The position numbers were made by a program, and so were the translations under genes. DNA of 60,179 bases from Candidatus Campbellbacteria bacterium (GTDB lineage: Bacteria; Patescibacteriota; Minisyncoccia; Phycocordibacterales; CSBR16-193). Numbering within the stretch: position 1 is the stretch's first letter; each line of letters begins with the position of its first letter. The notes below the pieces were generated by a model. That model was given only the letters and a program-made list of their open reading frames with translations, ran no database searches and was not told the DNA's origin. The stretch spans positions 1-60,179 of the forward strand of contig SKHG01000018.1 in NCBI GenBank assembly GCA_007117035.1, given 5' to 3'. This document shows positions 595 to 46,226 of this stretch, piece after piece.

Positions 595-623
595 AAAAAA
601 CCCGCAACTTTGTAAGTTGCGGG
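594..623 (-). terminator. Intrinsic terminator of lipoprotein gene
   Basis: CCCGCAACTT-TGT-AAGTTGCGGG hairpin with an A7 run on its left (U-tract on minus strand). Confidence 0.85.
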
Positions 624-638
624 CTTGCTATAACACCA

Positions 639-1058
639 CTACTGTGCTGAAGCAGAGGATGAAGATCCAGAATTAGAACTGGAACTTCCGCCTGAGACAT
701 TCATACCTCGGAGACCGAGGCCTATTGGAATTCCTAGACCCGGACCTCTCATAATAGGATCAAGAATACCTGGGGTTTTCTCAGTTGTCCAACCTTGGAA
801 TTGAACATCCCCAGATTGATCATGTGTCCAAACGGACACAAGTGAGACGTCTCCCCTCCAGAGATTTTTTTGCTCCCAAGCCAAAACTTGTTGACCTGGT
901 TGGTGTGAAATCTCTCCTGTCTCATCATTCTGATGAGACAAGGACTGGAAGTTGACCCCTTGTGGCTCGAATGCTGTTTGCGAGTGAGTGGTGCAACCCA
1001 CCCCCACAAACAACATGATTGCTGACAAAATTGTCAGAATTATCAATTGTTTTTTCAT
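639..1058 (-). CDS. Orphan lipoprotein
   Basis: Start refined to MKKQLIILTILSAIMLFVGVG-C (SPII lipobox-like), preceded by AAAGGGAAACT; Gly-rich hydrophobic segment and Ser-rich C-tail. Confidence 0.7.
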   Translation of the reverse strand: MKKQLIILTILSAIMLFVGVGCTTHSQTAFEPQGVNFQSLSHQNDETGEISHQPGQQVLAWEQKNLWRGDVSLVSVWTHDQSGDVQFQGWTTEKTPGILDPIMRGPGLGIPIGLGLRGMNVSGGSSSSNSGSSSSASAQ

Positions 1059-1074
1059 AGTTTCCCTTTCTCTA

Positions 1075-1151
1075 GTTTTTTGTGTGGTGGATTCTGTGTA
1101 AAAGAACCCGTTAGCTAGCAGTAGAATACATAACAAAAAAGAATATGTCAA
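1075..1151 (-). repeat. Promoter/leader module copy 1 (TTGACA-17-TATTCT, GTTCTTTTACA, A-rich leader)
   Basis: 1099-1151 matches 7154-7206 at 47/53 nt; 1075-1094 matches 7131-7150 at 17/20 nt. Confidence 0.9.
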
Positions 1152-1169
1152 GGGTTTAAAATATTGAAG

Positions 1170-2033
1170 TTAGGATTTTATAAGCTTTTTTAGTCTATCA
1201 ATATTTCTCTTATCTGCTCCTTGATTATCAAATCCTGGGACCTCAGCAATAAATGGTAGTTTTTTGATTTTACGGTGATTTAAAATCAGACGAAAAACCT
1301 CTTTATTAACAAAACCTTCATTAATATTATCGTGTCTATCTCGCAACGCTCCTAGTTCGTCACGACTATCATTTATATGAATCACCTCAAGATTTTCTAA
1401 ACCAATCATTTTTTCAAAACCAAGCAAGAAATTATCTATTTTTTTCTTATTCGACAAATCAAATCCGGCTGCGTGTAGGTGACACGTATCCAGACAAACT
1501 TTTAGTCGAGGATTTTTTATATTTTTTATAATATAAGCAATCTCAGCTAAATCCATTCCAATCTTCCTCATTCCCATATTTTCGATAATTAAAAAAGTTT
1601 CTTTGGGTGTTTTATCTAAAACAATCTTTATATTTTTTAAAAGTAGTTTGTACCTATCTCGTTCTCTAAATGATACGTCTGAGTTTATATTTTTTTTTCC
1701 ATCTTTAAATGAACCGAGGTGGACTACAGTTCCTCTGACTCCAACCTTTCCAGCAGTCTTTAACTCTGAGACCAGCGAATTGATTGATTTCTGTTGGATC
1801 TCTGAACTACCAACAAGGTTTATTAAATACGATGCGTGGAAATATACTGATGAAATTTTATATTGGACACAAGCTTTTTTAAACTTTTGAATTTCTTCCG
1901 ACGACAGATTAGCTACTCGCCAACCGCGAGGTGAAGTCGAGAAGATTTGTAGACAGTTACCTCCAATCTCATGAACTCGACGAACTGCTTCCGAGTAACC
2001 CCCAGCAGTAGATACGTGTGCTCCAATTAACAT
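1170..2033 (-). CDS. nfo: Endonuclease IV (AP endonuclease)
   Basis: IGAHVS, QIF, HASYLINL, HLG, IENMG, CLDTCH, HINDS, DRH and E Zn-ligand motifs. Confidence 0.95.
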   Translation of the reverse strand: MLIGAHVSTAGGYSEAVRRVHEIGGNCLQIFSTSPRGWRVANLSSEEIQKFKKACVQYKISSVYFHASYLINLVGSSEIQQKSINSLVSELKTAGKVGVRGTVVHLGSFKDGKKNINSDVSFRERDRYKLLLKNIKIVLDKTPKETFLIIENMGMRKIGMDLAEIAYIIKNIKNPRLKVCLDTCHLHAAGFDLSNKKKIDNFLLGFEKMIGLENLEVIHINDSRDELGALRDRHDNINEGFVNKEVFRLILNHRKIKKLPFIAEVPGFDNQGADKRNIDRLKKLIKS

Positions 2034-2136
2034 ATATCAATATTCTAACATATTTCTTTATTTGATCTATCACAACCAAACTTCCAAAATATCTGTATTG
2101 TGGCTAGGACATTGTAATAGATAAAACTTGTGTGTG

Positions 2137-2209
2137 TGGACCATAGCGGGGTCGAACCGCTGACCTCGCCCATGCCATGGGCGCGCTCTACCAGCTGAGC
2201 TAATGGCCC
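2137..2209 (-). tRNA. tRNA-Ala(GGC)
   Basis: GGGCCATTAGCTCAGCTGGTAGAGCGCGCCCATGGCATGGGCGAGGTCAGCGGTTCGACCCCGCTATGGTCCA; cloverleaf, G3:U70 identity pair, CCA not encoded. Confidence 0.97.
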
Positions 2210-2398
2210 TAAATAATCTCTTTTTTAAATTATATTCTAGAACAGAAATCCTAACAAACATTTCTATCAACCACAAAATCTATATTACTTATTTTTTTAT
2301 AAATCAAAAAAGCCACATCTGTCAAAATACCTAAACCTCGTCATGCTTAATTTTTAATATATCAACCGAAAGGAGACTTAGATGAAAGTAAATTTTAT

Positions 2399-2938
2399 TT
2401 ATCGAACATCGTATGCCCAGTGCAAAAGAGCTTGGCGCTGTTTAGGACGACAACTCTCATCTCCTGGTCGACAGTTCTTCTCCACCTGAGCAAGATGTCG
2501 ATTCATCTGTCTCCAACGCTTTATTTGTCGCTCATCTTCTTCTGATAAACGTCTTCCAAGATAGTAGCGACAGTACCACTGAAACCAACCATGCGGATCA
2601 TTTTTTTGGTTAATCCAACCTTTAGAAATCCAAACCTCGAGCGACTGACTAGCCTGAAGACCAAAATAATTTAACTCAGCGTGTTTTTCTCCATCCTTGG
2701 AAAGAGCCACTCCATCAAACCAACTTTTGGGTAGATCATCAGGAATCAAACCATCTACTGCTATAAAATATGCTCCGCCGAATACTCCTAATGAGAGCAT
2801 ATCTTTTGGTGTAAGGGTTGGGTTAAACCCTTGTGCAAAATTCTTACCAACAGGTTCAGACAACTCATAAACATAATTTTTTTGAAATCTATCACTGTAT
2901 TTGATCTTCTGTGGGCGTTTGTTGTTTGAATTTTTCAT
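2399..2938 (-). CDS. Conserved protein of unknown function (TPxxMLxLGVFGG...WFQWYCRYYLGRR...RQALLHWAYD family)
   Basis: Trp/Tyr/Arg-rich motifs that look like a conserved family; I cannot assign a function. Confidence 0.75.
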   Translation of the reverse strand: MKNSNNKRPQKIKYSDRFQKNYVYELSEPVGKNFAQGFNPTLTPKDMLSLGVFGGAYFIAVDGLIPDDLPKSWFDGVALSKDGEKHAELNYFGLQASQSLEVWISKGWINQKNDPHGWFQWYCRYYLGRRLSEEDERQIKRWRQMNRHLAQVEKNCRPGDESCRPKQRQALLHWAYDVR

Positions 2939-2939
2939 A

Positions 2940-3386
2940 TTAAATGTGATGAGTAAGGTACCAAACCAGAAGTCCTAATGAACCCCACCAACCAATAAAA
3001 GATACCAGAAAACTAACCGTAATCAATTTTTGTAATTTTTGAGGCAACAACTCTTGCTCTCTCCCCTCTCTTTCCTGTTTTAAAATATACGGACTAACAT
3101 AAAAAGAAAGAAAACAACCGTTTATAATTAAAAACAGCACAATAACTATATGAGTTAATGGAATCCAAGTCAGCGGGTTATTTACATAAAAGAAGAAACC
3201 ACCAACTATTACCAAAGCTATACCAATCCAAATCAAAGGCTTGGTTACCTTATGTGCTCTGATTGTTGCTACGGTCCAGTAAGAAGACCGTCGAGCTAGA
3301 AAACCGTGTAAATCGATAACTGTTACTGCGCCCAGACCTAAAACAAAACCTGCTAAAAATATAAACAAAGCGATTGATGTTGTCAT
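2940..3386 (-). CDS. Four-TM membrane protein, unknown function
   Basis: Four hydrophobic segments; start refined to ATG 3386, which lies 7 nt after TGT-TAAAAT (leaderless pattern). Confidence 0.75.
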   Translation of the reverse strand: MTTSIALFIFLAGFVLGLGAVTVIDLHGFLARRSSYWTVATIRAHKVTKPLIWIGIALVIVGGFFFYVNNPLTWIPLTHIVIVLFLIINGCFLSFYVSPYILKQEREGREQELLPQKLQKLITVSFLVSFIGWWGSLGLLVWYLTHHI

Positions 3387-3473
3387 GGATATTATTTTAA
3401 CAGAAATCAATTTTTATTTCTTTAGTTCATTCAGATAAATAAACTAAATAAAAATATTAAACCCTTTACTCAT

Positions 3474-3504
3474 AAAAAACCACCTTACATAAATGTAAGG
3501 TGGT
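3474..3504 (-). terminator. Intrinsic terminator
   Basis: ACCACCTTACAT-AA-ATGTAAGGTGGT hairpin with an A-run on its left. Confidence 0.85.
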
Positions 3505-3520
3505 GTTCGTATTCGGTTAA

Positions 3521-3967
3521 TTATTTAAATTCATCGCATAGACCGATGTATAATCCAACAACAAGACCCATAAAAAGACATGTTGCTAAACCATAAATAA
3601 AACCCGAGAGAAAACAGGTGAAAACAATAGACATAACAAGACCGACAATAATTCCTAGAACAAGACCCCAAACAAAACCTCTAACAAGATTACTGATTAC
3701 ACCCTCCTCCTCAAATGAATTCAGTGGTTTGAAGATGTTTACTGTAATAATTATTACGATTCCGCTTACGACATAAGACAGGATCGGTATCAAAACCAAT
3801 CCAATCTGTGAGAGGGTCAAGTTTTTTGGCGTTAGATATTGCATACTATCTAAATATGAAATTAGGTATAGATTAATTTCAAACCAAAAAAAACAACCCG
3901 ATATTAAAACCACAAAACCTGTAAACAATCCAAGTGAATAACCTGGAACTCTAAGATTAGCTTTCAT
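3521..3967 (-). CDS. Orphan membrane protein with Gly-zipper-like (GLVxG) C-terminal helices
   Basis: Hydrophobic ORF with AAAAGGAGGAATA-ATG SD, its own promoter and its own terminator. Confidence 0.8.
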   Translation of the reverse strand: MKANLRVPGYSLGLFTGFVVLISGCFFWFEINLYLISYLDSMQYLTPKNLTLSQIGLVLIPILSYVVSGIVIIITVNIFKPLNSFEEEGVISNLVRGFVWGLVLGIIVGLVMSIVFTCFLSGFIYGLATCLFMGLVVGLYIGLCDEFK

Positions 3968-4011
3968 TATTCCTCCTTTTTTGTTTTTAAGAACACTCTA
4001 AGTCAAAAAAT

Positions 4012-4040
4012 ACAATAAGGTAAATTACTGCTAATGTCAA
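4012..4040 (-). promoter_or_regulatory. Sigma70 promoter of orphan 3521-3967
   Basis: TTGACA-17-TATTGT followed by GTTCTTAAAAAC and AGGAGG. Confidence 0.75.
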
Positions 4041-4126
4041 TCTGTCGTTATGGTTCAATAGGATTAATTTTAAAAACCTGCTTTACTTCCCACAAACAAG
4101 GTCTAAATAAATTAAATTCATTTTTT

Positions 4127-5350
4127 TCAGTCCACCTCACCGAAAGAAGGAATTGAGAATCTGGATTTTCTAAATTCTTTTTTATAATCTGAACTTTTCT
4201 TTAACCCTGAACACAGACCAACAACCCCTCTACCAAACCGAAGATTTAAATTATCTATTACTTTGAAAGGAAGACTTATTTCCTGGTGTCTTTCGTTAAA
4301 AAGAACCTGCTGTGTTGACTCTCTGTTTTCTAGACCTGAAAAAATTACACCTGTTGTTCGATACAAAACTCCACTCAAAAAAATACCGTCTAGAATAATG
4401 CGCGCCTGCACAACAGCTATATTGCTCGCATTAGACGGCTGAAAAAACTTAACCTCTTTTTCTTTGTATTTAAAAGTTTGAGTTTTTATAAACACAGACA
4501 TGCACTTGGCTCGAAGATTCATTCTACGAAGATCAAAAGTTGCTTTCTCAATGTGCTCTACTATTTCTTTTAGGAGAAAATCTTTGTTGGCACTAGGAAT
4601 AAAAGTCCTACTAGAACGAATTGATTTTCTAGGTGATAAATTTTCATTACCAAACGGAAAAACTTCTTGACCGTTTAACTCCTGCCATATCGTCTGAAGA
4701 GGTTTATAGAAATCTTTTTGTATTCTTCTAAAATCTTCTGAAACTAAATCAAAGGCATTACGCAAACCAACTTTTTCAAGTTTTTCTGCTGTCCTCTCTC
4801 CAATTCCCCAAACCTTGTTAAGAGGAGTAGCTTTTAAGTAATTTTCTCGATCCTGATCTTTCAAAAAAGTAAAACCGTCTGGTTTGCCCCAGTTAGACGC
4901 AATCTTAGCCAGAACCTTTGTTGATGCTAAACCAACAGAAACAGTAATACCCAACTCCTTTTTTATATCTGATTTTATATTAAAAACTGCACTCTTTACC
5001 TTTCTCTCGAAAAATAATTTACCTTTTTTAAAACGTATAAAAAATTCATCAATACTATACTCCTCTATCTCTTCTCCATACCGACGAGCAATGTCGAACA
5101 TTCTTCTTGAAAAAACCGTGTACAAAAAGAAATCAGAATGGACTACGATAACTTCCGGAAAAAGACGTCGGATTTGTGTAACAGGCATTCCTCTGGTAAC
5201 TCCTAAAACTTTAGCCTCTTTACTCATGGAGGACGCAATACCTCTTTCGGCACCAGTAATAACCGGTCGACTCTTTAAACTTGGATTGATAGACTGCTCA
5301 ACTGATGCAAAAAAAGAATCACCGTCGATATGACCTATGATGTGTGACAT
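4127..5350 (-). CDS. umuC: Y-family translesion DNA polymerase (UmuC/DinB type)
   Basis: HIDGDSFFASVEQ, YSIDE, K(V)LAKIAS, VWGIG motifs; UmuC-like C-tail (IDNLNLRFG); lies 2 nt downstream of the lexA/umuD-like gene. Confidence 0.85.
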   Translation of the reverse strand: MSHIIGHIDGDSFFASVEQSINPSLKSRPVITGAERGIASSMSKEAKVLGVTRGMPVTQIRRLFPEVIVVHSDFFLYTVFSRRMFDIARRYGEEIEEYSIDEFFIRFKKGKLFFERKVKSAVFNIKSDIKKELGITVSVGLASTKVLAKIASNWGKPDGFTFLKDQDRENYLKATPLNKVWGIGERTAEKLEKVGLRNAFDLVSEDFRRIQKDFYKPLQTIWQELNGQEVFPFGNENLSPRKSIRSSRTFIPSANKDFLLKEIVEHIEKATFDLRRMNLRAKCMSVFIKTQTFKYKEKEVKFFQPSNASNIAVVQARIILDGIFLSGVLYRTTGVIFSGLENRESTQQVLFNERHQEISLPFKVIDNLNLRFGRGVVGLCSGLKKSSDYKKEFRKSRFSIPSFGEVD

Positions 5351-5352
5351 GA

Positions 5353-5937
5353 TTATTTGTATTTTCTAATAACCCCAACAACAACAGCAGAAATTTCAAG
5401 ACTCTCTTTCGGATAAATAGGTTTATACTTTTTGTTTGCTGGTTCCAAAAAACTAATCCCGTCTTTCTTTCTTAAATATTTCATTGTCCACTTTCCGTCA
5501 ATTTCAGCGATAACAATACTACCTTCTTTTGGAGTCTTACCTCTTTCAACAACAACAATATCACCTTGCTGTATACCGGCGTCCTTCATAGAATCACCTG
5601 TCACCTTTAGGATAAAACTTGCCTCCCGATTCTCAACCAACCATTCGTCTAGAGTAATAGTATCCAAGAACTGCTCTTCGGCTGATCCTGGAAATCCAGC
5701 CTCAATAGTACCGAGAACTTTGAGTTGACCGAAAAGATTTGTTGGTATGATCCTACCTGTTTTATCTTGTGATATTACACCATCATTAACCAAACTCTTA
5801 ACTAATTTATAAACAGTATTTTTAGATTTAAAACCTAAAAGATTACCTAACTCCGAAAAACTTGGCATTCTTTTTCTTTTTTTATAAAAACCCCTCAATA
5901 TTAAAAGTGTATTTTTATTTTTAATAATTCCAGTCAT
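5353..5937 (-). CDS. lexA: LexA-family repressor with UmuD-like S24 peptidase domain
   Basis: N-terminal wHTH (MPSFSELGNLLGFKSKNTVYKLV), AG cleavage site (IEAGFP), catalytic Ser (GDSM) and Lys (WTMKYL). Confidence 0.9.
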   Translation of the reverse strand: MTGIIKNKNTLLILRGFYKKRKRMPSFSELGNLLGFKSKNTVYKLVKSLVNDGVISQDKTGRIIPTNLFGQLKVLGTIEAGFPGSAEEQFLDTITLDEWLVENREASFILKVTGDSMKDAGIQQGDIVVVERGKTPKEGSIVIAEIDGKWTMKYLRKKDGISFLEPANKKYKPIYPKESLEISAVVVGVIRKYK

Positions 5938-5943
5938 TCTTAA

Positions 5944-5972
5944 AGTATAGTAAACGAACGTTCACCTGTCCA
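5944..5972 (-). promoter_or_regulatory. lexA-umuC promoter with candidate SOS operator in the spacer
   Basis: TGGACA-17-TATACT, ATG 6 nt downstream; GAAC-GTTC-GTTT (GAAC-N4-GTTY) at 5952-5963. Confidence 0.7.
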
Positions 5973-6045
5973 CTCGATTTCAATAAATGGCCGAACGATT
6001 ATCCTATTCCACAATAAGAAAGAGTGTTTTGTGTCATAAATATAA

Positions 6046-6077
6046 AAACCCTACCGTATAAAATACAGTAGGGTTTG
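6046..6077 (-). terminator. Intrinsic terminator
   Basis: AAACCCTACCGTAT-AAAA-ATACAGTAGGGTTT hairpin (one mismatch). Confidence 0.7.
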
Positions 6078-6130
6078 ATGTCTCAGTTTTTTAACATAAA
6101 TTCTGAGAAAGATTTGCACTCCTCCCAAAT

Positions 6131-6388
6131 TTAAATTAAAGGTTTTAGAACTGAGTCATTAGTGTAATGAGCTGTGAGATCTCTTCCGGTCAATAAAAAC
6201 TTAACAGAAAATGTCTCTTCTATCTCATCCAACCTCTCCTTATGAGAAGCTAAATAGAGCGCGACTGATTCATAAATATCAATATTTTTTAAATGATAAG
6301 TATGGTGGCCTGATTGATTATTGTATATCTCATTAGCCAATTCATGTAGTAGAATTTCTACCACATCAATGTTTACATCTTTATTCAT
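6131..6388 (-). CDS. Small orphan protein (85 aa)
   Basis: ATAGGAGGAATT-ATG SD; downstream terminator; GTTCTTTTACA in leader (about 6503-6516). Confidence 0.75.
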   Translation of the reverse strand: MNKDVNIDVVEILLHELANEIYNNQSGHHTYHLKNIDIYESVALYLASHKERLDEIEETFSVKFLLTGRDLTAHYTNDSVLKPLI

Positions 6389-6631
6389 AATTCCTCCTAT
6401 TTAATTTGAGAAGTCTGTTGGGTTAACATAAATAAGAAAACAATAAACTACATTGTTTCATCTTTATTTTTTGGACCATATCATGACCCAAAACAGACCT
6501 TTGTGTAAAAGAACAAAACCCCAACCTGATTATTAGTCGGGGCAACAATGTTAAAATTATATAGTATTTTTCATATAAGTAAAGACCCTGAACTTAAACT
6601 AACTTTTCTATCTGCTTTTATTAATAATAAA

Positions 6632-6657
6632 AAAGAGTGTTGCAAGCAACACTCTTT
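6632..6657 (-). terminator. Intrinsic terminator
   Basis: AAAGAGTGTTGC-AA-GCAACACTCTTT perfect inverted repeat with an A-run on its left. Confidence 0.85.
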
Positions 6658-6673
6658 GTTTTAAAAAACCAAA

Positions 6674-7111
6674 TTAAATTCCTCCCCCGCCAAAAATGGC
6701 TTTGAGAGTTAAGAAAAGGTCTTTATTTGATTGTTCAAAAATAACAACTTTCCAGCCTTGTCGAACTCCAATTGAGACATCAGGACGCCTCGCATCAGGA
6801 AATTCGTCCCTTATCATTTCCCAGAAGATGCTGTCTAGTACGCTCATCTGGTTACTCATTTTTTGAATCTCAATCATCAGTGACAGAGAATCATCTCCAG
6901 AAACAACAAAAAGGTTCCTTTTTAGATCCTCAAATTTCTTCTTACTAGATTCTTTGAAATAAAGAATCCGTGAATACACTGTTTTGGTTCTTTGATTCTG
7001 CAGGATCCCAAGAACAGTTTCTTCTGGATTAACTTCTTTCCTCGGTTCACTAAGTGCTTCAAACTTTCCAGAAAAAATGTCTTCCAGGTGTTTTTCTAAT
7101 TCTTCAACCAT
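6674..7111 (-). CDS. Orphan cytoplasmic protein (145 aa; FWxxIRxEF...IGVRxGWKVV motif)
   Basis: AATAGGAGGTAATT-ATG SD, own promoter module and terminator. Confidence 0.8.
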   Translation of the reverse strand: MVEELEKHLEDIFSGKFEALSEPRKEVNPEETVLGILQNQRTKTVYSRILYFKESSKKKFEDLKRNLFVVSGDDSLSLMIEIQKMSNQMSVLDSIFWEMIRDEFPDARRPDVSIGVRQGWKVVIFEQSNKDLFLTLKAIFGGGGI

Positions 7112-7130
7112 AATTACCTCCTATTTTTTT

Positions 7131-7206
7131 GTTTTTTGTTTGATGAATTCCTTTAAAAGAACTCGTTAACTAACAGTAGAATGCCTAACAAAAAAGAATC
7201 TGTCAA
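7131..7206 (-). repeat. Promoter/leader module copy 2 (TTGACA-17-CATTCT, GTTCTTTTAAA)
   Basis: Near-identical to 1075-1151. Confidence 0.9.
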
Positions 7207-7493
7207 TAGTTCCGTAATATCCCAATAGCTTGGAAAAAGCAAAAAATAAAACCCAAGTATGTTGCATATACAAATCTCAAAAAACAGAAAGAAGTTTGTT
7301 TCTGTTTAGTGACGAACAAACAAACCAAAAAATCATAAAAAGTCTTACTTTTTCCTTTGTAAATCACTACTTTAAAAGTGATCTGGGTTTTGCAGAAAGG
7401 ATAAAATATGTATAATAGGGACTTGTATATTATTATATTTTCATTTTATCCAAACAAGCTTTAAAAATATTCAACGTCAGACATACATATAAT

Positions 7494-9269
7494 ATGAATA
7501 AAGAGAACAGTTTAGGAATCATCACTCGTGTAAGTGGTCCGTTGGTTGAGGCTCGAGGACTCTCAAATGCCAGGATGTATGAAGTGGTCAAGGTCTCAAA
7601 ACACAAACTTCTAGGTGAAATTATAGAACTTAATAATGATAAGGCTTCTATTCAGGTATACGAAGAAACTTCAGGTATTGCTCCTGGTGAACCTGTAGAG
7701 TTAACCGGGCAAACCATGTCAGTTGAATTAGCTCCTGGACTACTTGAATCTATCTACGACGGAATTCAAAGACCGTTAAAAAAAATTGAGGAGATTTCCA
7801 AGAGTCAATATATTACACGCGGAATTGAAACAGATGCTATTGACCTAGAAAGAAAATGGGAATTTAAACCAACCTCTAAAGAACAAACTGAGGTTCAAGG
7901 TGGTGATATTTTAGGTGAGGTACAGGAAACCGAAACTATTACTCACCGAATAATGGTTCCACCAAACATTTCGGGAACTTTAATCTCAGTCAAGTCTAAA
8001 GGAAATTACACAGTTAAAGAACCGATAGCAATTATTAAAACCAAGGATGGAAAAGAAAAAGATATTTCAATGCTACAGTATTGGCCTATTCGAACTCCTC
8101 GACCTAAAAAAGAAAAAATATTCCCTACCGAACCTTTAATTACTGGTGTTCGAATTATCGACAGTCTATTCCCAGTAGCTAAAGGTGGTGCAGCATCGAT
8201 TCCAGGTCCATTTGGTTCGGGTAAAAGCGTAACCCAGCAATCACTAGCAAAGTACTGTGATGCTCAGGTTATTATCTACATAGGTTGTGGTGAACGCGGA
8301 AACGAAATGACTGAGGCTCTAAATGAATTTCCAGAACTACTTGATCCAAACACAGGACAGTCATTAATGAAAAGAACCGTCCTTATTGCCAACACCTCAA
8401 ACATGCCTGTTGCAGCTCGTGAAGCTAGCGTCTACACAGGTATTACTATCGCCGAGTACTACCGAGACATGGGTTACTCCGTAGCCTTGATGGCTGACTC
8501 AACTTCGCGTTGGGCTGAAGCTATGAGAGAAATGTCTGGACGAATGGAGGAGATGCCAGGTGAAGAAGGTTATCCAGCCTATCTGGCTTCTCGAGTCTCA
8601 GAGTTTTATGAAAGAGCGGGTAAAGTAACCTGTATTGGTACTGACGAGAGACAAGGGGCACTTTCTGTAATAGGAGCAGTTTCACCCCCTGGAGGAGATC
8701 TCTCCGAACCAGTTTCTCAAGCCACCTTTAGAGTCACTAAATGTTTTTGGAGTCTAGACGCTTCAATTGCCTACCGAAAGCATTTTCCCGCTATCAACTG
8801 GCTAAACTCATACTCTCTATACATTGATAACATCAAAGATTATTGGGCTAAAAATGTCTCACCAGATTTCTGTCAAATCAGATCTGAAGCTATGGACATT
8901 CTTCAGCAAGAAGCAAAGTTGCTTGAGATTGTTCGGTTAGTTGGAATGGAAGCTCTTTCTGGATATGAAAAACTGATTCTAGAAATCGCCCGATCTATTC
9001 GAGAGGATTTTCTTTTTCAGAACGCTTTTGACCCAGATGATGCTTACACTCCCCTAATAATTCAGTACGAAATTTTGCGTTCAATCATCCACCTCTACCA
9101 CGAACTAAAACCTGAGAGTGAAAACCGGGAAAGAGATTTTTCAGACCTTTCTGGAATTAGTTCATTTGGCAAACTACCTGAACTAAAAAATTACAAAGAA
9201 GTAAAGGAGTTTGAAGATTTTAGAAACATAGTTACAGCTGAGGTTAAATCCTTGCCAGTGATTTCTTAA
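7494..9269 (+). CDS. ntpA: V/A-type ATPase catalytic subunit A
   Basis: GPFGSGKS P-loop, [29 protein letters not shown]; non-homologous insert typical of V-type A; no intein. Confidence 0.97.
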
Positions 9270-12096: not shown

Positions 12097-12287
12097 AGTG
12101 TAATATTTAAATAAATTTATAACAAACACTGCACATCATACTGAAATAAGTAGATAGTGACAAATCGCAAGCTGTGGAAAGATGGGCTCTACAAAATATA
12201 TTTTCTGCTTCCGACAAACTGTCTTTTATGATAAGATACTCGCTGTAATTAAATATAGTCTCGTAAGAGAAATTTAGATAATCAAAA

Positions 12288-12602
12288 ATGACCTACATAA
12301 AAACAATATTAAAAACTGAAAGAGAAGCTCTGTCCATAAAGGAAAAAACTGACAAAAAAGCCAAAACAATTCTTGAGCAAAAAAAGGTTCAGTTGGACAA
12401 AGAACTAGAGGACTTTCAAAAAAATCTATTGGTAGAAAGAGGAGAAGAACTCGCAAACCAAAAAAACCGCCTCAAAAAGATATATACCGAAATTATTGAA
12501 GTTGGTAAAAAGCAAAAAAATAAGATGCAGACTACTCTAAACTCAAACAAGGAGAAGTCTGTTAGTTTTATTTTAGAAAAAATAAATCAGAATAATCAAT
12601 GA
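12288..12602 (+). CDS. V/A-type ATPase peripheral stalk subunit G/H
   Basis: 104-aa charged coiled coil overlapping the start of subunit I (ATGA); canonical first position in the operon. Confidence 0.7.
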   Translation: MTYIKTILKTEREALSIKEKTDKKAKTILEQKKVQLDKELEDFQKNLLVERGEELANQKNRLKKIYTEIIEVGKKQKNKMQTTLNSNKEKSVSFILEKINQNNQ

Positions 12603-14533
12603 GCCTACTAGAGATGACTAAAATTAGACTGGTGACTCACAAAGAAAGTGTCGCCAATACTGTAGAAACACTCCAAAAAATGGGGGTTGTTGAACTAACC
12701 GAAATAAAAGATAAGACTGACTTAAAATCACTAGAAAAAACTGTATTCAATATTGATCACACCTCTAGTCGAGTTGATTTTACTGTTTCCTTTTTATCAC
12801 ATTACGAAAGAGCCCCTTTTTTGAAAAAACTATTTGAAGGAGGACGAACTCAGACAACTGAGAAAGAGATGGAAGAAATTATGAAATCGTTTTATTTCGA
12901 AGACGTTGTAAAAAGAACAACTCAGATAATTGAGTCTATAAATACCTCAAAATCTCGACTAGAAGCACTTCAGGAAGAAGAAAGATTATTACTAAATTGG
13001 ACGAGCTGGGAGACACCCTTGTCATTTCCTACCACCACCGAAGAAACTCGGACTTTATTTGTTGAAGGAAAAGAAGAGGATATTACTTCGGCTGAAGAAG
13101 AGATTGCTGACTATCCAAACTATATCTACCAAAGAGTTTCTAATATTTGCTTAGCAGTCACTTGTTTAAAAGGAGACGAAAAAGCTCTGAAAGAAACCCT
13201 CACATCATACAAGCTCGAAGAAATAAAACTTCCAAAAAGATTAGGGACGGTTACTGATGAACTAGAAAGAATTAGGAAAAGTAAAATTAAGAACTTACGT
13301 CTTTTGGATCTAGCTAAACTAAGAGCAAATAGATTAGCTAGTTTCTTACCAAAACTTCGAGTTGTTAGTGACTATCTTCATTGGAGAAAAGAAAGAAACG
13401 ATATTACTTATCAGGCTTACGGAACCAACTCCTGTTTAATATTTGAGGGCTGGGCACCAAAAAAATCTATAGACGAGATTAGTAACAGATTGGTAAAACT
13501 AGAAGACCTTTCAGCAATCGAGGAGATCGAACCAGAAGACGGAGAAGAACCACCGATTGAGATAAGAAATAACAAACTAGTCGCTCCTTTCGAATCAGTG
13601 ACCAGACTCTACGGTCTTCCAGGTAAAAAAGATCTGGATCCAACACCTTATCTAGCAGGTTTCTTTTTTATATTTTTTGGTATCTGTCTATCAGATGCAG
13701 GTTACGGTTTAGTTTTAACAGGACTGACAGCACTAATTCTTTTAACATACAAAGTAACAGGTGCTACCAAACTTTTCATCCAACTCTTTATGTTGGGAGG
13801 TATTTCATCATTTGTTACAGGACTTTTCTTCGGTGGCTACTTTGGTATCGGGCCTGAATTTTTTCCTACTTGGATAGCAAACTTACAATATTTTGACCCT
13901 GTAGCTAATCCACTACCAGTTTTCTACCTAGCTTTAGGACTAGGTGTCTTTCAGATAGTTTTTGGAATTTGTCTTGATATAGTCAGAAGTCATCGTACCC
14001 AAAATCTAAAAGAAGGTCTTCTGGACAATGTTCCGTGGTTGATTTTCTTTGCTTCTGTTATTCTTTGGGGTGGAAGTACTTTAGAAATAATTACTGGCTC
14101 AGAAAACATATACAGTTCAATAGTTTTGTTATCTCTTGTGATGATTACCTTATCTTCGGGTAGAAAATATCCTAAACTTTGGCAGAAGATATCAATGGGG
14201 ATTTTAGGTCTTTACAGTATTGTTGGTTATCTCTCTGACATACTCTCCTACTCTCGTCTCTTGGCTCTAGGTCTTGCTACTGGCGCACTTGCTTTTTCAG
14301 TCAACCTAATAGCAACTATGGCCTACGAAGCAGTACCGTTTGGTGGTATTGTGGTTATGATTATAATTCTAATAGTAGGACATAGTTTTAATCTTGCGGT
14401 CAATTTGTTAGGATCATTTATTCATACAGCTCGTTTGCAATTCGTTGAATTCTTTGGTAAATTCATTAAAGGAACAGGTAGGAATTTTAAGCCTTTCTAC
14501 CGAGAAGAGAGGAACATAATACTGAAGAAGTAA
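12599..14533 (+). CDS. ntpI: V/A-type ATPase subunit I (a)
   Basis: DPTPYLAGFFFIFFGICLSDAGYG, LSDILSYSRLLALGLA (essential Arg), HTARLQFVEFFGKF. Confidence 0.95.
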   Translation: MSLLEMTKIRLVTHKESVANTVETLQKMGVVELTEIKDKTDLKSLEKTVFNIDHTSSRVDFTVSFLSHYERAPFLKKLFEGGRTQTTEKEMEEIMKSFYFEDVVKRTTQIIESINTSKSRLEALQEEERLLLNWTSWETPLSFPTTTEETRTLFVEGKEEDITSAEEEIADYPNYIYQRVSNICLAVTCLKGDEKALKETLTSYKLEEIKLPKRLGTVTDELERIRKSKIKNLRLLDLAKLRANRLASFLPKLRVVSDYLHWRKERNDITYQAYGTNSCLIFEGWAPKKSIDEISNRLVKLEDLSAIEEIEPEDGEEPPIEIRNNKLVAPFESVTRLYGLPGKKDLDPTPYLAGFFFIFFGICLSDAGYGLVLTGLTALILLTYKVTGATKLFIQLFMLGGISSFVTGLFFGGYFGIGPEFFPTWIANLQYFDPVANPLPVFYLALGLGVFQIVFGICLDIVRSHRTQNLKEGLLDNVPWLIFFASVILWGGSTLEIITGSENIYSSIVLLSLVMITLSSGRKYPKLWQKISMGILGLYSIVGYLSDILSYSRLLALGLATGALAFSVNLIATMAYEAVPFGGIVVMIIILIVGHSFNLAVNLLGSFIHTARLQFVEFFGKFIKGTGRNFKPFYREERNIILKK

Positions 14534-14601
14534 TCCGCGATCAGATCCGCGGGTTTGTTAGTTAAGCTTAATTATTCGTTTATTCAATCAATTATTTAAA
14601 T

Positions 14602-15081
14602 ATGGAAATTATTACAATCGGAACCGCATTAGTTTTTGCAGGAGCAGCAATATCAGCAGCCTTGGGTTTTAGTGGGTCAGCAATCGGAATGGGTTACGCT
14701 GGTCAGGCTGCATCAGGAGTTCTGGGCGAGAAACCAAATCTTTTTGGTAAAATGTTATTGATGCAGGCTTTGCCTGGATCACAAGGTATCTACGGCTTCG
14801 TTGGTGCCTTTTTAATTTTGAACTTTGCTGGTATTTTAGGGGGTGAACCAGGAGTAATTATTGAAACCTCAGTTGGTTGGCAGTATTTAATGGCTGGAAT
14901 TCCAATCGGAGTAGCAGGTTTCTTTTCAGGAATGTTTCAAGGAATGGTTGCTGCATCTGGTATCTCCATGATTGCCAAAGATGAAGCGAATATGGGAAGA
15001 GCTATAATCCTCTCAGTTATGGTTGAGACCTGGGCGATCTTTGGTGTATTGATAAGCTTTATCTTGTTGACATCGATGTAA
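14602..15081 (+). CDS. ntpK: V/A-type ATPase proteolipid subunit K (4-TM, NtpK-like)
   Basis: LPGSQGIYGF, SGMFQG, MVETWAIFG; double hairpin with a single Glu in TM4. Confidence 0.95.
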   Translation: MEIITIGTALVFAGAAISAALGFSGSAIGMGYAGQAASGVLGEKPNLFGKMLLMQALPGSQGIYGFVGAFLILNFAGILGGEPGVIIETSVGWQYLMAGIPIGVAGFFSGMFQGMVAASGISMIAKDEANMGRAIILSVMVETWAIFGVLISFILLTSM

Positions 15082-15095
15082 GAAATTATAAATTT

Positions 15096-15674
15096 ATGTC
15101 TATTGAAGCCATAACAGAAAAATTACTTTCCGAAGCTAAATCAGAAAGTCAGAAAACTCTCAAAGAAGCAGAACTCAAAATATCTCAGCTGGAGAATGAT
15201 TTAGAGGAGAAGAAGAGAGATCTTCTTCTTAAAGAAAAAGAATACAGGTCAGCTAACGAAAAGGAAAATACATCAAGGGTTCAGTCCAAAGCTAGTTGGC
15301 AGGTAGAACAAGAAATTGAGAAATTGAAGCGTGAGGCTCTGGACGAAGTTTTTGAAAAAACTCTAACCAAACTAAACTCTCTCGAAAACAATGAATACAA
15401 AAAAGTCTTAACAAAACTTTTGAAAAAAGTTGAGGTAGATATTTCTCAGAAAATCACTGTCTTTATTCCAAAAAACCGAGAGAAAGAAGTGACAGAAGTT
15501 TTAATTGAAAGGTTCGGCAAAGATCATAAATTTGAAATCAAGACAGACACAAACATTTCAGGTGGAGTAATCATATCTGGATCTGAGTTTGAGTACGATC
15601 TTAGCTTCCCTTCTCTTTTACGAAACATTAAGGGTCATGTCGAGCCAGAGATATCTAAAATTTTATTTTCCTAA
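15096..15674 (+). CDS. ntpE: V/A-type ATPase subunit E
   Basis: N-terminal coiled coil, ISGGVII...YDLSF C-domain, operon position. Confidence 0.85.
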   Translation: MSIEAITEKLLSEAKSESQKTLKEAELKISQLENDLEEKKRDLLLKEKEYRSANEKENTSRVQSKASWQVEQEIEKLKREALDEVFEKTLTKLNSLENNEYKKVLTKLLKKVEVDISQKITVFIPKNREKEVTEVLIERFGKDHKFEIKTDTNISGGVIISGSEFEYDLSFPSLLRNIKGHVEPEISKILFS

Positions 15675-15679
15675 AAATT

Positions 15680-16666
15680 ATGCAAAATGGCTATATATAT
15701 GCCGGTACCAGAGTTAAATCTTTAGAAAATTCGTTACTGAACGACGAACAGGTAGATATGTTACTTGCTGGAAAATCCTTTGAGGATAGTTTTTCCACAC
15801 TACATGGAACATTTCTAGGAAGATATATAGCAAATCGAGACAATAAGGACTTGTCATTAGTTTTAGAAGAAGCCATAAATGACTCCAAAAATCTTTTGTG
15901 TCTGATTTCTCCAGAGAAGGATATTTTGGATATTTTGTGGCTCAAGTATGATTTTTATAATCTAAAGGTAATAATCAAAGGATCTATTGCAGGGCTAAAC
16001 GATGAAGAAATTGAAAAGAACTGTTTTGGGTCAGGAAAATATACCCCGCAAGAACTTCTTGAGCACTATCGAGGAAACACTTTGTCTAGAATAAATATCT
16101 TCCTACAGAAAGCTATGGAACAATCTCGATCCTACGAAGAAGTTTCAGAGATTGATCGAGCAATGAACCTTAACTACTTCGAAGCAATAAAATCTATAGC
16201 GTGGTCTAAGAAAAATAAGTTTGCTAAAGATTATGTAACACTTTTGATAGATATTTTTAACATTCAAGCTAACTTAAGAGCACTTTCTTATGGTGAGGCT
16301 CTAGAGACACCAACAGCTCTTTTTGTATCTGGTGGAAGTCTAAAACAGAGTGATCTGGAAAATAAAGATCGTATCCTAGAAAATATTCACAAAATTGGTG
16401 GAAAGGTTGGGACATGGAAAGAAGCGGTCGAGGATTATAAAAAAACTGGGGATTACGTTATTTTGGAAAGAATTAGTGATAACTATCTTGCAAATTTTCT
16501 TAAAGAAAGTAGTTATGATATTTTTTCTCCCGCTTCCCTTTTCTCATACTTTCACGCCCGAAAAAATAATATCCAATTAATCAGAAGTATACTAGTTGGA
16601 AAACAAACAGGTCTTTCAGAATATGAAATTAGAAAAATGTTAAGAAAACTTTATGGCGGAAAATAA
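15680..16666 (+). CDS. ntpC: V/A-type ATPase subunit C (d)
   Basis: YIYAGTRVKSLENSLL, YDFYNLKVII, IDIFNI, IRKMLRKLY. Confidence 0.88.
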   Translation: MQNGYIYAGTRVKSLENSLLNDEQVDMLLAGKSFEDSFSTLHGTFLGRYIANRDNKDLSLVLEEAINDSKNLLCLISPEKDILDILWLKYDFYNLKVIIKGSIAGLNDEEIEKNCFGSGKYTPQELLEHYRGNTLSRINIFLQKAMEQSRSYEEVSEIDRAMNLNYFEAIKSIAWSKKNKFAKDYVTLLIDIFNIQANLRALSYGEALETPTALFVSGGSLKQSDLENKDRILENIHKIGGKVGTWKEAVEDYKKTGDYVILERISDNYLANFLKESSYDIFSPASLFSYFHARKNNIQLIRSILVGKQTGLSEYEIRKMLRKLYGGK

Positions 16667-16985
16667 AAAATACAGCATTGCAGTGATTGGAGATCGTGAT
16701 GTTATCTCGGGTTTTCGAGCTTTAGGTCTAAAAGTTTTTGCTGTGTCTGAAAACCAATCAGCAACAGAACAGATCATAAAAATTAAAGAAAGTGGAGAGT
16801 TTGCCATTATCTTGATTACAGCCTCTGCAAAAAAAACTGTACCCGAGGACCAGTTTCGTAAACTAACCAGAGAACCTCTTCCTACCATCCTGACAATTCC
16901 AGACATAAAAGAAAGTAACACTGGTAGTATCGAACATCTTAAGGATTTAACAGAAAGAGCAATCGGTTTTGACATCCTAAGTTAA
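16653..16985 (+). CDS. V/A-type ATPase subunit F
   Basis: IAVIGDRDVISGFRALG, FAIILIT, PTILTIP, ERAIGFDIL. Confidence 0.9.
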   Translation: MAENKKYSIAVIGDRDVISGFRALGLKVFAVSENQSATEQIIKIKESGEFAIILITASAKKTVPEDQFRKLTREPLPTILTIPDIKESNTGSIEHLKDLTERAIGFDILS

Positions 16986-17090
16986 TTACGAATTATTTTA
17001 AAAAAGGGGTTGTTATAATTTCAAATTTATATTATTCTTTACTCTGTCCCAAAGTTAAATTAGTTTATGAGGGATAAACAAGAAATCAAT

Positions 17091-17164
17091 GGGCCCGTAG
17101 CTCATCTGGCTAGAGCGCCTCACTTGCACTGAGGAGGTGGCAGGTTCGAGTCCTGTCGGGTCCA
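17091..17164 (+). tRNA. tRNA-Ala(TGC)
   Basis: GGGCCCGTAGCTCATCTGGCTAGAGCGCCTCACTTGCACTGAGGAGGTGGCAGGTTCGAGTCCTGTCGGGTCCA; G3:U70; CCA not encoded. Confidence 0.97.
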
Positions 17165-17174
17165 CCCAAATACA

Positions 17175-17203
17175 CCCCATTACGTCTGTAATAGGGGTTT
17201 TTG
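17175..17203 (+). terminator. Terminator after tRNA-Ala(TGC)
   Basis: CCCCATTAC-GTCT-GTAATAGGGG followed by TTTTT. Confidence 0.75.
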
Positions 17204-17256
17204 TTTAGATGTTATCTAGTAGAATATGAATTTTTGAAAAAATACATCCTCTTGCT

Positions 17257-18231
17257 CTAAAACTTATATCTCAAAGCCAGATCAATTACATGTTCAAAAA
17301 AATCTGGTAGCTCCAAACCAGCTTCTTTTAAGGATAGAGGTAGAAGTGAAGTTGGTGACAGTCCTGGTAGTGAATTTGTCTCCAGAAAAAATATACCTCT
17401 TTCTGGATGAATAATAAAATCAGTCCGAGAGTAGTGTTGGAGGCCCAATGTTTGATGGGCTAACACTGAAGCGTTCTGCATTATTTGAATATCATTAACA
17501 GAAAAATCGCCAGGACATATCTCACGACTTTCTCCACTGTATTTAGCTTGGTAATCAAAAAAATTATGATCCACTGGTGGAATAATCTCTACAGGTGACA
17601 ACGGAAATATATTTTTATTCTGAAAACTCTCTAGAACTCCGCAAGTAGCTTCTCTACCTTCTATATACTCTTCAACCATTACCGAACTAGAGTGTTTAAA
17701 TCCTTCCTTGACAGCTTCTTCTAATTCACCAACAGAGGAAACTACACGAACACCTACAGAGGATCCAGACATTACTGGTTTAACTACAACTGGTAGACCT
17801 AATTGATCCAGAACAGAATTTGGGTCAAAAGGTTCCAAGGAATTGGATGACAAAATCACATTTTTAGCAAAAGATACCATTGGAATTTCCAAATAATTTT
17901 TAGTCAGATATTTATTCATTGAAAGAGCAGCCCCAAAACGACCAGGACCGGTGTAAGGAACACAAGCCTCGTCCAGAATTTTTTGAACACCACCATCTTC
18001 TCCAAAGGTACCGTGGAGAGCATTGAAACAAACATCAACCCTAGAGAGAATACTTTGTGGTGAAAGTACTCTATTATTCAAAGACCACTGACCTTCTTTT
18101 GATATCAGAATATCCATTCCCAAAAAATTCTTTGGCAGATTACTCAAAACAACCTCCCCACTCTTTAGCGAAACCTCGTGCTCATTAGAGGGTCCACCCC
18201 TTAAGACTCCAACCACAATATTAGATTTCAT
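17257..18231 (-). CDS. ddl: D-alanine--D-alanine ligase
   Basis: GGPSNEHEVSLKSG, ALHGTFGEDG, VKPVMSGSSVGV, FDYQAKY (Tyr indicates D-Ala-D-Ala type), ETNSLPG. Confidence 0.95.
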   Translation of the reverse strand: MKSNIVVGVLRGGPSNEHEVSLKSGEVVLSNLPKNFLGMDILISKEGQWSLNNRVLSPQSILSRVDVCFNALHGTFGEDGGVQKILDEACVPYTGPGRFGAALSMNKYLTKNYLEIPMVSFAKNVILSSNSLEPFDPNSVLDQLGLPVVVKPVMSGSSVGVRVVSSVGELEEAVKEGFKHSSSVMVEEYIEGREATCGVLESFQNKNIFPLSPVEIIPPVDHNFFDYQAKYSGESREICPGDFSVNDIQIMQNASVLAHQTLGLQHYSRTDFIIHPERGIFFLETNSLPGLSPTSLLPLSLKEAGLELPDFFEHVIDLALRYKF

Positions 18232-21487: not shown

Positions 21488-21557
21488 TAAGATAATTATA
21501 GCAAGCAATTAAAAATTATAAAACCCGAACAGGTGTTCATATTTATCTTAAACAAAT

Positions 21558-44587: not shown

Positions 44588-44914
44588 TTACATCATCAAA
44601 TCAGGTTCTTGGATTCCAAAAGTAGCCAGAAGTGTGTATATAATTCCGTAAACCGAAAACATTATAACCATTCCAATAACACCCCAGAACATATTTCTCT
44701 TACCTTTCTCTCTCGCTTCTTCATTGTCTTGACCTGAGAGAAACTCTATAATACCCCACATAAACATAACCAATGCTAAGACAAAAAGAAGTAAAATCAG
44801 AGGATTAAGAATAAATTCGTTGATTCTTAAAAGTAACGGCGTTATATCAATCGCCGAATGCTCTTGCGCATGTGCGGTCGATACTAGACTAAATTTTTCA
44901 AACAGAAATCTCAT
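44588..44914 (-). CDS. VirB2/TrbC-like pilin paralog 6
   Basis: Signal peptide AHA-Q, two TMs linked by GQDNEEAREKGK, FMWG/MFWG. Confidence 0.75.
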   Translation of the reverse strand: MRFLFEKFSLVSTAHAQEHSAIDITPLLLRINEFILNPLILLLFVLALVMFMWGIIEFLSGQDNEEAREKGKRNMFWGVIGMVIMFSVYGIIYTLLATFGIQEPDLMM

Positions 44915-44938
44915 TTATAAATTCTAAACCAAACTAGA

Positions 44939-45793: not shown

Positions 45794-45841
45794 ATATATT
45801 TGTATTATATCTAATAATAAATAGTTTTTAAACTATTATAA

Positions 45842-46219: not shown

Positions 46220-46226
46220 AACAATC

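Follow-up and report, generated by a model that had tools for sequence, protein, structure and literature searches.

Two unrelated genes within the 60,179-nt stretch of Candidatus Campbellbacteria DNA analysed here (the window) are preceded by copies of the same module of about 77 nt, which reads as a sigma-70 promoter followed by a conserved 5′ leader of ~40 nt, both promoter activity and start site being predicted from the sequence. The best explanation, to which we assign a probability of roughly 60%, is a local duplication of non-coding regulatory DNA that carried the promoter and leader and is now used by both genes. The original prediction had allowed either for duplication of the promoter or for exchange of ORFs behind a fixed one. 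Duplication is the better supported of the two, by limits of similarity that coincide with the −35 hexamer and the Shine–Dalgarno sequence (SD), by the unrelatedness of the downstream proteins and by the reproduction of both junctions in a second assembly. For exchange, evidence was found neither way: each module copy is followed by its own, unchanged ORF in the two assemblies compared, and the searches gave no sister genome or further copy that could show a swap.

A repeated predicted promoter and leader

BLASTN aligns the two copies over 77 nt with 84.4% identity, 1 gap and a pairwise E value of 2.3e-20 (Table 1), and a repeat search of the window returned them as an ungapped pair of 58 nt with 86% identity. 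Recounting the two blocks of identity described in the original prediction gave exactly the same figures, 47/53 positions for 1099-1151 against 7154-7206 and 17/20 for 1075-1094 against 7131-7150, separated by a linker of 4 nt in one copy and 3 nt in the other (the 1-nt indel). Identity runs, as had been described, through the −35, spacer, −10 and leader and stops just before the SD; outside the module, ungapped identity drops to background (10/30 past the −35, 12/30 towards the SD and CDS). The 12 differences between the copies are evenly spread, and with only two sequences this distribution does not reveal which positions are selected. Both genes, and with them the promoter reading, lie on the minus strand, a point clarified here.

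Table 1. Positions in the window of the two module copies, their predicted promoter and leader elements, and associated genes
Feature	Position	Strand	Basis or remark
Module copy 1, promoter and conserved 5′ leader	1075..1151	-	From 18 nt after nfo stop codon to 17 nt before lipoprotein ATG
Copy 1 −35 hexamer, TTGACA	1146..1151	-	Promoter scan and sequence read
Copy 1 −10 hexamer, TATTCT	1123..1128	-	Promoter scan
Copy 1 predicted transcription start	near 1116	-	Inferred from sigma-70 geometry, 7 nt downstream of −10
Copy 1 leader hairpin / inverted repeat, GGGTTCT-N7-AGAATCC	1089..1109	-	
Gene for 139-aa probable lipoprotein, orphan	639..1058	-	Start codon at 1058
Weak SD of lipoprotein gene, AAGGG	1064-1068	-	
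Terminator-like hairpin downstream of lipoprotein gene	598..626	-	
Module copy 2	7131..7206	-	In 382-nt divergent intergenic region between 145-aa ORF and V/A-type ATPase operon
Copy 2 −35 hexamer, TTGACA	7201..7206	-	Sequence read
Copy 2 −10 hexamer, CATTCT	7178..7183	-	Weaker, below scan threshold
Copy 2 predicted transcription start	near 7171	-	~7 nt downstream of −10
Copy 2 leader hairpin, GAGTTCT-N6-AGGAATTC-type	7145..7164	-	
Gene for 145-aa protein, orphan	6674..7111	-	Start codon at 7111
Strong SD of 145-aa gene, AGGAGG	7117-7122	-	
Terminator-like hairpin downstream of 145-aa gene	6632..6657	-	
Housekeeping sigma factor, full-length RpoD	28125-29450		In window
lexA	5353-5937		Between the two module copies
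Y-family polymerase gene	4127-5350		Between the two module copies

An assembly artefact, which the original prediction had named as a possible undoing of its claim, was looked for and is excluded, because an independent Logan assembly carries both junctions in two contigs. That assembly differs by SNPs elsewhere, and its contigs end at tRNA genes rather than at the module.

The module is unique to these two sites in the sequence searched. A 33-nt IUPAC pattern of the bases common to both copies matches nowhere else in the window with up to three mismatches allowed, and has 0 matches in 100 dinucleotide shuffles. No third copy was found in the window by nhmmer with all filters off or by tiled local alignment, and a 10-kb part of the parent contig beyond the window holds none. 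A 13-nt match (GTTCTTTTACACA, 6494-6506) examined as a further copy scored within the background of unrelated tiles. Over the ~70 kb of the genome covered the copy number is two, and the other genomes searched gave no accepted copy. The copies lie 6055 nt apart on the same strand; a single pair at this distance in ~70 kb favours a local duplication over a dispersed family.

Among GTDB representative genomes, pattern TCTACTGNTAGNTAACGNGTTCT matched only Desulfuromusa kysingii, inside signal-peptide coding sequence; we took this match as chance, the expectation for 20 specified bases being ~1 match. Pattern TTGACANATTCTTTTTTGTTANNNATTCT had 0 matches in JGI metagenomes, neither pattern matched IMG/VR, and blastn found no module match in plasmids and phages. 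Exact-protein look-up for sister genomes returned the same strain only. A metagenome scan with the Y-family polymerase yielded 80 loci of distant relatives (at most 61% identity); none of the 80 is syntenic past lexA-polymerase, and none contains the module or homologues of the orphan genes.

Consistent with a sigma-70 promoter, both copies have hexamers near TTGACA/TATAAT upstream of a gene, with a spacer in the usual range of 16-18 nt. Copy 1 (TTGACA-17-TATTCT) agrees with the consensus at 10/12 positions and is among the best matches of the scan; copy 2 (TTGACA-17-CATTCT) agrees at 9/12 and falls below the scan rule because of its −10 alone. The −10 hexamers are mediocre (4/6 in copy 1 and 3/6 in copy 2), and sigma-70-like matches in the AT-rich region show no excess over shuffles (23 found, 23.4 expected). 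The same architecture, as TTGACA-17-TATAcT, is found in the lexA promoters of the window and of relatives. We also considered a plus-strand promoter at copy 2 (TTAAAA-18-TAGAAT) and rejected it: at copy 1 it would run antisense into nfo, and its −35 position there reads GTAAAA.

Downstream of the predicted start, both copies retain a 7-bp leader hairpin, in which one pair is G-C in copy 1 and A-U in copy 2, a compensatory difference. A search of Rfam gave no match to the module, whether at the gathering threshold or with E values relaxed to 5, and its folding energy is no better than that of shuffles (z −0.2 to −0.9).

Two orphan genes behind the module

Both downstream genes are monocistronic, each with its own SD and terminator-like hairpin, and both ORFs score as coding in their own frame only. 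The probable lipoprotein has a signal peptide ending in ...FVGVG-C (lipobox) and a Ser/Gly-rich tail, and its gene has a G+C content of 46%, against 36% for the window. The 145-aa protein is predicted to be cytoplasmic and mostly helical. Our searches found no relatives of either protein, leaving both as orphans. HMMER matches examined as homologues of the lipoprotein were traced to a perfect tandem-repeat protein and are artefactual.

In line with the original prediction, the two proteins are unrelated: the best BLASTP E value between them is 2.3, and their coding sequences lack nucleotide similarity. Predicted secondary structure also differs, with beta strands in the lipoprotein and helices in the 145-aa protein (low confidence). 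Remote homology between the two, which the prediction had acknowledged would reduce the repeat to a simple gene duplication, was therefore detected neither by BLASTP and nucleotide comparison nor in the predicted secondary-structure class, the last with low confidence. Single-sequence AlphaFold models of the two proteins (pLDDT 48 and 51) are too poor for a fold search.

Under a local duplication, the segment copied to a same-strand site 6 kb distant would have comprised a sigma-70 promoter and the first ~40 nt of the 5′ untranslated leader, and the copies would be paralogous pieces of regulatory DNA, each now preceding a monocistronic, lineage-specific gene unrelated to the other. Carrying the housekeeping sigma factor, RNA polymerase would initiate ~7 nt past each −10, and both mRNAs would share a 5′ end consisting of the small hairpin and then an A-rich tract. 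Similar transcription of the lipoprotein and the 145-aa protein would be the outcome, possibly with similar mRNA stability or control; the module probably gives both genes the same expression signals. The hairpin or inverted repeat may have a role of its own, and the duplication, whose direction and age are likewise inferred, may be recent, or older and held by selection.

Alternative explanations for the similarity

The alternative that survives best, though we consider it unlikely, is that selection has kept the two regions alike, the module bearing one or more operators for a transcription factor and the two genes forming part of a small regulon with its other members beyond the sequence covered. 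Possible operator sites would be the inverted repeat of the leader (GTTCT...AGAAY) or the (A/G)TTCT motif, repeated directly three times. The inverted repeat is retained in both copies with one double change, tandem tetramers at the predicted start have changed in parallel (GCTA-GCTA versus GTTA-GTTA), and the spacer is conserved too, though RNA polymerase alone does not constrain it. An operator, however, would not require 77 contiguous conserved bases; no sub-motif of the module is enriched elsewhere in the 60-kb window, no weaker copy of the module was found, and LexA, the one regulator nearby, has a box that the module lacks. Selection on an operator could act on duplicated DNA as well, and to that extent this explanation overlaps with the best one.

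Considerably more doubtful is a portable promoter-leader that this poorly sampled lineage of small genes would employ again and again to switch on new or acquired orphan genes (promoter capture on the way to gene birth or domestication) or, equivalently, one that tags a genome-wide set of orphan genes under one regulator. The 46% G+C of the lipoprotein gene would fit an acquired gene supplied with a resident promoter, and further copies could exist elsewhere in the genome if the module were such a portable unit or regulon tag.

We give little credence to the leader being a cis-regulatory RNA (a riboswitch, thermometer, sRNA or protein-binding leader) that moved along with the promoter. Conservation does extend over ~40 nt of the predicted transcript, ending before the SD, the small hairpin is common to both copies, and there is precedent, as part of the published putative mobile promoters proved to be riboswitches (PMC3575422). 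Yet a ligand-binding aptamer would not fit into so short a conserved stretch of transcript, and the failure to match any Rfam family even at permissive E values, the unexceptional folding energy and the absence of the module from every other genome searched all speak against it.

Still less credible is the idea that the module belongs to, or is left over from, a miniature mobile element (MITE, Correia or REPIN-like) with an outward-facing promoter. Elements of this type are known promoter carriers (PMC3575422), and the module contains an imperfect inverted repeat of 8-10 nt, TTTTTTGT(T)...ACAAAAAA, seen as a self-antisense match and as the outer stem of the fold. This repeat, however, is a low-complexity A/T run and is not terminal, the conserved block having its left end elsewhere. 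The module flanks show no sign of a target-site duplication, there are just two copies in ~70 kb, and plasmids, phages, IMG/VR, GTDB and JGI gave no accepted match.

The two remaining explanations are very improbable. Control of both promoters by LexA (SOS) is suggested by their bracketing of the lexA/Y-family polymerase operon and by letters that the module sequence AACG(G/A)GTTC has in common with the lexA operator. The LexA box of the clade is GAAC-N4-GTTC in the promoter spacer, present as GAACGTTCGTTT at 5952-5963 in the lexA promoter of the window and found in 22/49 lexA upstream regions of relatives; GAAC-N4-GTTY is absent from both module copies on either strand, and the AAC/GTT halves in the module are 2 nt apart rather than 4. 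We rejected SOS control of the module given this absence of a canonical (Cheo-box type) LexA box from both copies. Equally remote is a gene duplication with coding parts diverged past recognition, or else chance or an assembly artefact, for which there is the repeat itself only: the upstream DNA is 84% identical while the adjoining coding DNA has no similarity at all, the reverse of the usual order of decay, which argues against gene duplication, and the two proteins differ in predicted character (low confidence), with a signal peptide, lipobox and beta strands in one and a helical, cytoplasmic chain in the other. The 0 shuffle matches and the pairwise E value of 2.3e-20 exclude chance, and the independent Logan contigs, whose breaks fall at tRNA genes rather than in the module, exclude an artefact.

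Promoter reuse in other bacteria and its significance

Similar upstream regions ahead of unrelated genes have been catalogued as putative mobile promoters by Matus-Garcia, Nijveen and van Passel (2012, as summarised in PMC3575422), with more than 4000 families in 1362 genomes, mostly pairs, and a mean identity of 92%. As in that catalogue, the upstream DNA described here is non-coding, alike over at least 50 nt at no less than 80% identity, and lies before non-paralogous genes of one genome; it overlaps no flanking gene and, like most of the families, forms a pair without a known mobile element or RNA family. It is less conserved than the catalogued mean (84-86% identity), its copies lie only 6 kb apart, both genes are orphans and the lineage is uncultivated. 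The original screen considered positions −150 to −50 relative to the start codon (at least 80% identity over at least 50 nt), and the module lies at −17 to −95; within the screened interval BLASTN aligns 43 nt at 88%. The module fits the concept, yet lies too near the start codon to have been caught by the published screen.

Promoter capture is known to activate silent or new genes, as in E. coli Cit+ of the long-term evolution experiment and Lactococcus ldhB (cited in PMC3575422). The present case resembles these in that a resident promoter is predicted to have been copied ahead of another gene, supplying expression. The Cit+ and ldhB captures, however, arose by tandem amplification or IS insertion and were experimentally shown; the module has neither an IS nor a tandem structure and is read from sequence. 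With Correia, ERIC and REPIN elements it has in common a short intergenic repeat able to carry a promoter and some internal inverted symmetry, but families of that sort number tens to hundreds of copies, end in defined terminal inverted repeats and duplicate their target; the ~70 kb searched and the module flanks showed none of this for the module.

In horizontal regulatory switching of intergenic regions, reportedly described by Oren et al. in 2014, the promoter of the same gene is replaced between strains. There, as here, regulatory DNA evolves or moves apart from the gene it controls; here, by contrast, one promoter-leader serves two different genes inside one genome. The concept is also mentioned in PMC5890482.

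Though genuine, the module is unremarkable as an instance of promoter reuse, which has been documented at scale before, so that it opens no new question. If the duplication reading is correct, it would be a clean natural example of regulatory DNA copied apart from coding DNA, with sharp limits at the −35 and the ribosome-binding site, and would illustrate how new or acquired genes can gain expression signals. The module is also a candidate native promoter/5′UTR part for a lineage without genetic tools.

A predicted promoter-leader module ahead of two genes

BLASTN aligned the regions upstream of the lipoprotein gene (copy 1) and the 145-aa gene (copy 2) as a single 77-nt match with 84.4% identity and one gap (pairwise E 2.3e-20). 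The original prediction had described two blocks – 47/53 identical (1099-1151 vs 7154-7206) and 17/20 identical (1075-1094 vs 7131-7150) – offset by a 1-nt indel; our recount gave exactly these figures and placed the indel in the inter-block linker (4 nt in copy 1, 3 nt in copy 2). A repeat search of the window recovered an ungapped 58-nt pair (86% identity), and a 33-nt shared-base pattern with up to three mismatches matched the window at the two module sites only, with 0 occurrences in 100 dinucleotide shuffles. The copies lie 6055 nt apart on the same strand and have 12 evenly spread differences; tandem tetramers at the predicted start site differ in parallel (GCTA-GCTA vs GTTA-GTTA). As had been claimed, identity runs from the -35 to just before the SD, and the boundaries are sharp at both ends: in the flanks, ungapped identity is 10/30 past the -35 and, toward the SD and coding sequence, 12/30.

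Features of the two module copies and their neighbourhood
Feature	Sequence or detail	Coordinates	Strand
Copy 1 -35	TTGACA	1151-1146	minus
Copy 1 spacer	TATTCTTTTTTGTTATG, 17 nt		minus
Copy 1 -10	TATTCT	1128-1123	minus
Copy 1 leader	ACTGCTAGCTAACGGGTTCTTTTACACAGAATCCACCACACAAAAAAC, then gene-specific AGAGAAAGGGAAACT	ATG at 1058	minus
Copy 1 hairpin	7 bp	1089-1109	minus
Copy 1 SD	AAGGG, weak		minus
Lipoprotein ORF	139 aa	639-1058	minus
Copy 2 -35	TTGACA	7206-7201	minus
Copy 2 spacer	GATTCTTTTTTGTTAGG		minus
Copy 2 -10	CATTCT	7183-7178	minus
Copy 2 leader	ACTGTTAGTTAACGAGTTCTTTTAAAGGAATTCATCAAACAAAAAAC, then AAAAAAATAGGAGGTAATT	ATG at 7111	minus
Copy 2 hairpin	7 bp	7145-7164	minus
Copy 2 SD	AGGAGG, strong		minus
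145-aa ORF	145 aa	6674-7111	minus
lexA promoter	TGGACA-GGTGAACGTTCGTTTAC-TATACT, 17-nt spacer	5944-5972	minus
LexA box in lexA spacer	GAACGTTCGTTT	5952-5963	
Candidate second LexA site	GAACAGGTGTTC	21527-21538	
nfo	endonuclease IV family	1170-2033	
nfo upstream region	TAGAAT	2034-2060	minus
tRNA-Ala(GGC)	ARAGORN	2136-2209	minus
tRNA-Ala(TGC)		17090-17168	
Four ORFs near lexA-polymerase	179, 156, 148, 85 aa	2399-3967 and 6131-6388	minus
V/A-type ATPase subunit D		10742-11362	
Amino-acid kinase family	PF00696	11368-12129	minus
104-aa and subunit I genes		12288-14533	
Six-gene tandem array	108-136 aa each	44588-47082	minus
Solute-binding-protein gene		47079-48395	

All relevant features of both copies are on the minus strand; a plus-strand promoter was rejected, since transcription from it would enter nfo in antisense at copy 1, and its -35 is not conserved. 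A consensus scan ranked copy 1 among the top sigma-70-like sites (10/12). Shuffled sequence, however, contains matches of this kind at least as often as this AT-rich region does; the case for a promoter is therefore made by position and context and not by the scan. Two points of context support it: a full-length RpoD is encoded in the window, and lexA promoters, both here and in relatives, have the same TTGACA-17-TATAcT geometry. With transcription predicted to start ~7 nt past the -10 (near 1116 and 7171), 5' leaders would be ~58-60 nt long, the first ~40 nt common to both. The hairpin lies in this common part and is retained by both copies; between the two, one pair is altered on both sides (G-C to A-U), though two sequences are too few to establish covariation, and stability is not above that of shuffled sequence (z -0.2 to -0.9). 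An operator common to both copies, or a 5' hairpin with a stabilising role, is possible. Downstream of each copy come a separate SD, a single ORF and a terminator-like hairpin; we therefore read the loci as two monocistronic units whose common part is promoter and leader only.

Distribution, assembly and the downstream genes

The 60-kb window holds two copies and the next 10 kb of the parent contig none; module sub-motifs are not enriched elsewhere in the window, and a 13-nt match at 6494-6506 was dismissed as a further copy, its score being within background. Exact-pattern scans found nothing real among GTDB species representatives – the single match lies inside a Desulfuromusa coding sequence – and no match in JGI metagenomes or IMG/VR; plasmids and phages likewise gave none. 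The 80 loci that a metagenome scan by Y-family polymerase yielded are all distant, at 35-45% full-length identity, and the module is absent from every one. What they conserve is the lexA-polymerase pair alone, in 61 of the 80; the flanking genes are not conserved. Within the public data searched, the module is thus specific to this lineage. Past the window end, positions 12236-17691 of the parent-contig stretch L089, just beyond ftsZ, carry a GIY-YIG/T5orf172 ORF (79 aa), then 511- and 341-aa ORFs with no Pfam match on record; the stretch may be an insertion.

An assembly artefact, named beforehand as a refuter, is excluded. The window corresponds, in reverse complement, to one end of ENA contig ERZ27301260:k141_1240016 (106,426 bp), and Logan contigs from run SRR7083930 reproduce both junctions: nfo-module-lipoprotein in L004 (100% over 2101 nt) and 145-aa-module-V-ATPase in L006 (99.95% over 14,957 nt). 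The assemblies differ at eleven SNPs and are thus not byte-identical copies; both modules and both orphan genes are free of these SNPs. The Logan graph is intact at the module and breaks at two tRNA-Ala genes, exactly at tRNA-Ala(GGC) and tRNA-Ala(TGC). The former scored 58.5 bits (gathering score 29) in a permissive Rfam scan of 600-7600; the whole-window gathering-threshold scan missed it, apparently because of a filter.

The 139-aa protein has a Ser/Gly-rich tail and a signal peptide ending FVGVG-C, consistent with the PROSITE lipobox rule; the 145-aa protein lacks a signal peptide and is predicted to be mostly helical. Each ORF scores as coding only in its own frame and negatively in every other. 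The dissimilarity first noted between the two proteins was borne out, their coding sequences sharing nothing at the nucleotide or protein level. Neither matched Pfam, NCBIfam, PHROGs or PADLOC, and tblastn found neither in the 80 loci. The 145-aa protein had no relative among 5.8 billion clusters, nor the lipoprotein among 1.84 billion representatives (full HMMER), its weak HMMER matches being the same 23 residues, eight times, against one perfect tandem-repeat protein. AlphaFold models made from single sequences are poor (pLDDT 48 and 51) and suggest different classes – helical vs small beta sheet. Remote homology, the other named refuter, was thus not detected at this level of comparison.

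Origin of the repeat and the LexA question

With the repeat confirmed, the genes unrelated and no artefact, the proposal that the promoter was duplicated is supported as far as testable: most likely, the promoter-plus-leader segment was copied locally. Its sharp boundaries could mean that the duplicated unit had precisely this extent, or that selection has kept the functional part only; two copies with 12 evenly spread differences cannot separate these. The lipoprotein gene is richer in G+C than the window (46% vs 36%), which would, speculatively, agree with its having been acquired and having then captured a promoter already resident.

Exchange of ORFs behind a fixed module, the other possibility first raised, is so far unsupported. 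A miniature transposable element is an unlikely reading: the ~70 kb covered hold just two copies, the flanks show no target duplication, and the internal TTTTTTGT/ACAAAAAA symmetry is a stretch of low complexity in a non-terminal position. A known RNA family was excluded, with no Rfam match to the module. SOS control of both promoters is the obvious idea, because lexA and a DinB/UmuC-type polymerase gene lie between the copies, but we reject it, as the module has no GAAC-N4-GTTC box on either strand.

The window's lexA is bona fide (TIGR00498 above cut-off), and the clade's LexA operator is such a Cheo-type box in the promoter spacer. The lexA promoter of the window has this architecture, which recurs in 22/49 lexA genes adjoining Y-family polymerase genes in distant metagenomic relatives (loci L012, L014, L019, L024 and L027 among them). 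A perfect Cheo-type palindrome, intergenic and just downstream of truB, is a candidate second LexA site. The lexA -10 ends just 6 nt ahead of the ATG, so its mRNA is probably leaderless; that of nfo may be too, since TAGAAT ends ~8 nt before its ATG with no SD. The module's ~58-nt leader with SD contrasts with both neighbours.

Four more ORFs near the lexA-polymerase pair had no match in Pfam, NCBIfam, PHROGs or PADLOC; among the 80 loci, only the 156-aa ORF had a marginal tblastn match (23% identity, E 3e-4, L052). The cassette sits within a block of lineage-specific genes. Elsewhere, an amino-acid kinase family gene lies in opposite orientation within the V/A-type ATPase cluster, between subunit D and the 104-aa and subunit I genes. 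Directly downstream of the solute-binding-protein gene, six paralogous genes in tandem (20-35% identity to the first) each encode a signal peptide and two hydrophobic segments, resembling pilin or TrbC/VirB2-like proteins in shape.

Relation to putative mobile promoters

Putative mobile promoters, as Matus-Garcia, Nijveen and van Passel named them (PMC3575422), are sequences of 50 nt or more, at least 80% identical, that precede non-paralogous genes within a single genome. Those authors counted more than 4000 such families from 1362 genomes, the majority pairs, with a mean identity of 92%, and gave the mobilisation mechanisms as unknown. The module pair resembles these in identity, length, unrelated genes and the absence of flanking-gene overlap. 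Unlike the published families, it has only 43 nt inside the -150..-50 window of that screen and would therefore have escaped it. The pair is a further case of this already described kind – one in which two unrelated orphan genes would now have their transcription signals and mRNA 5' end in common.
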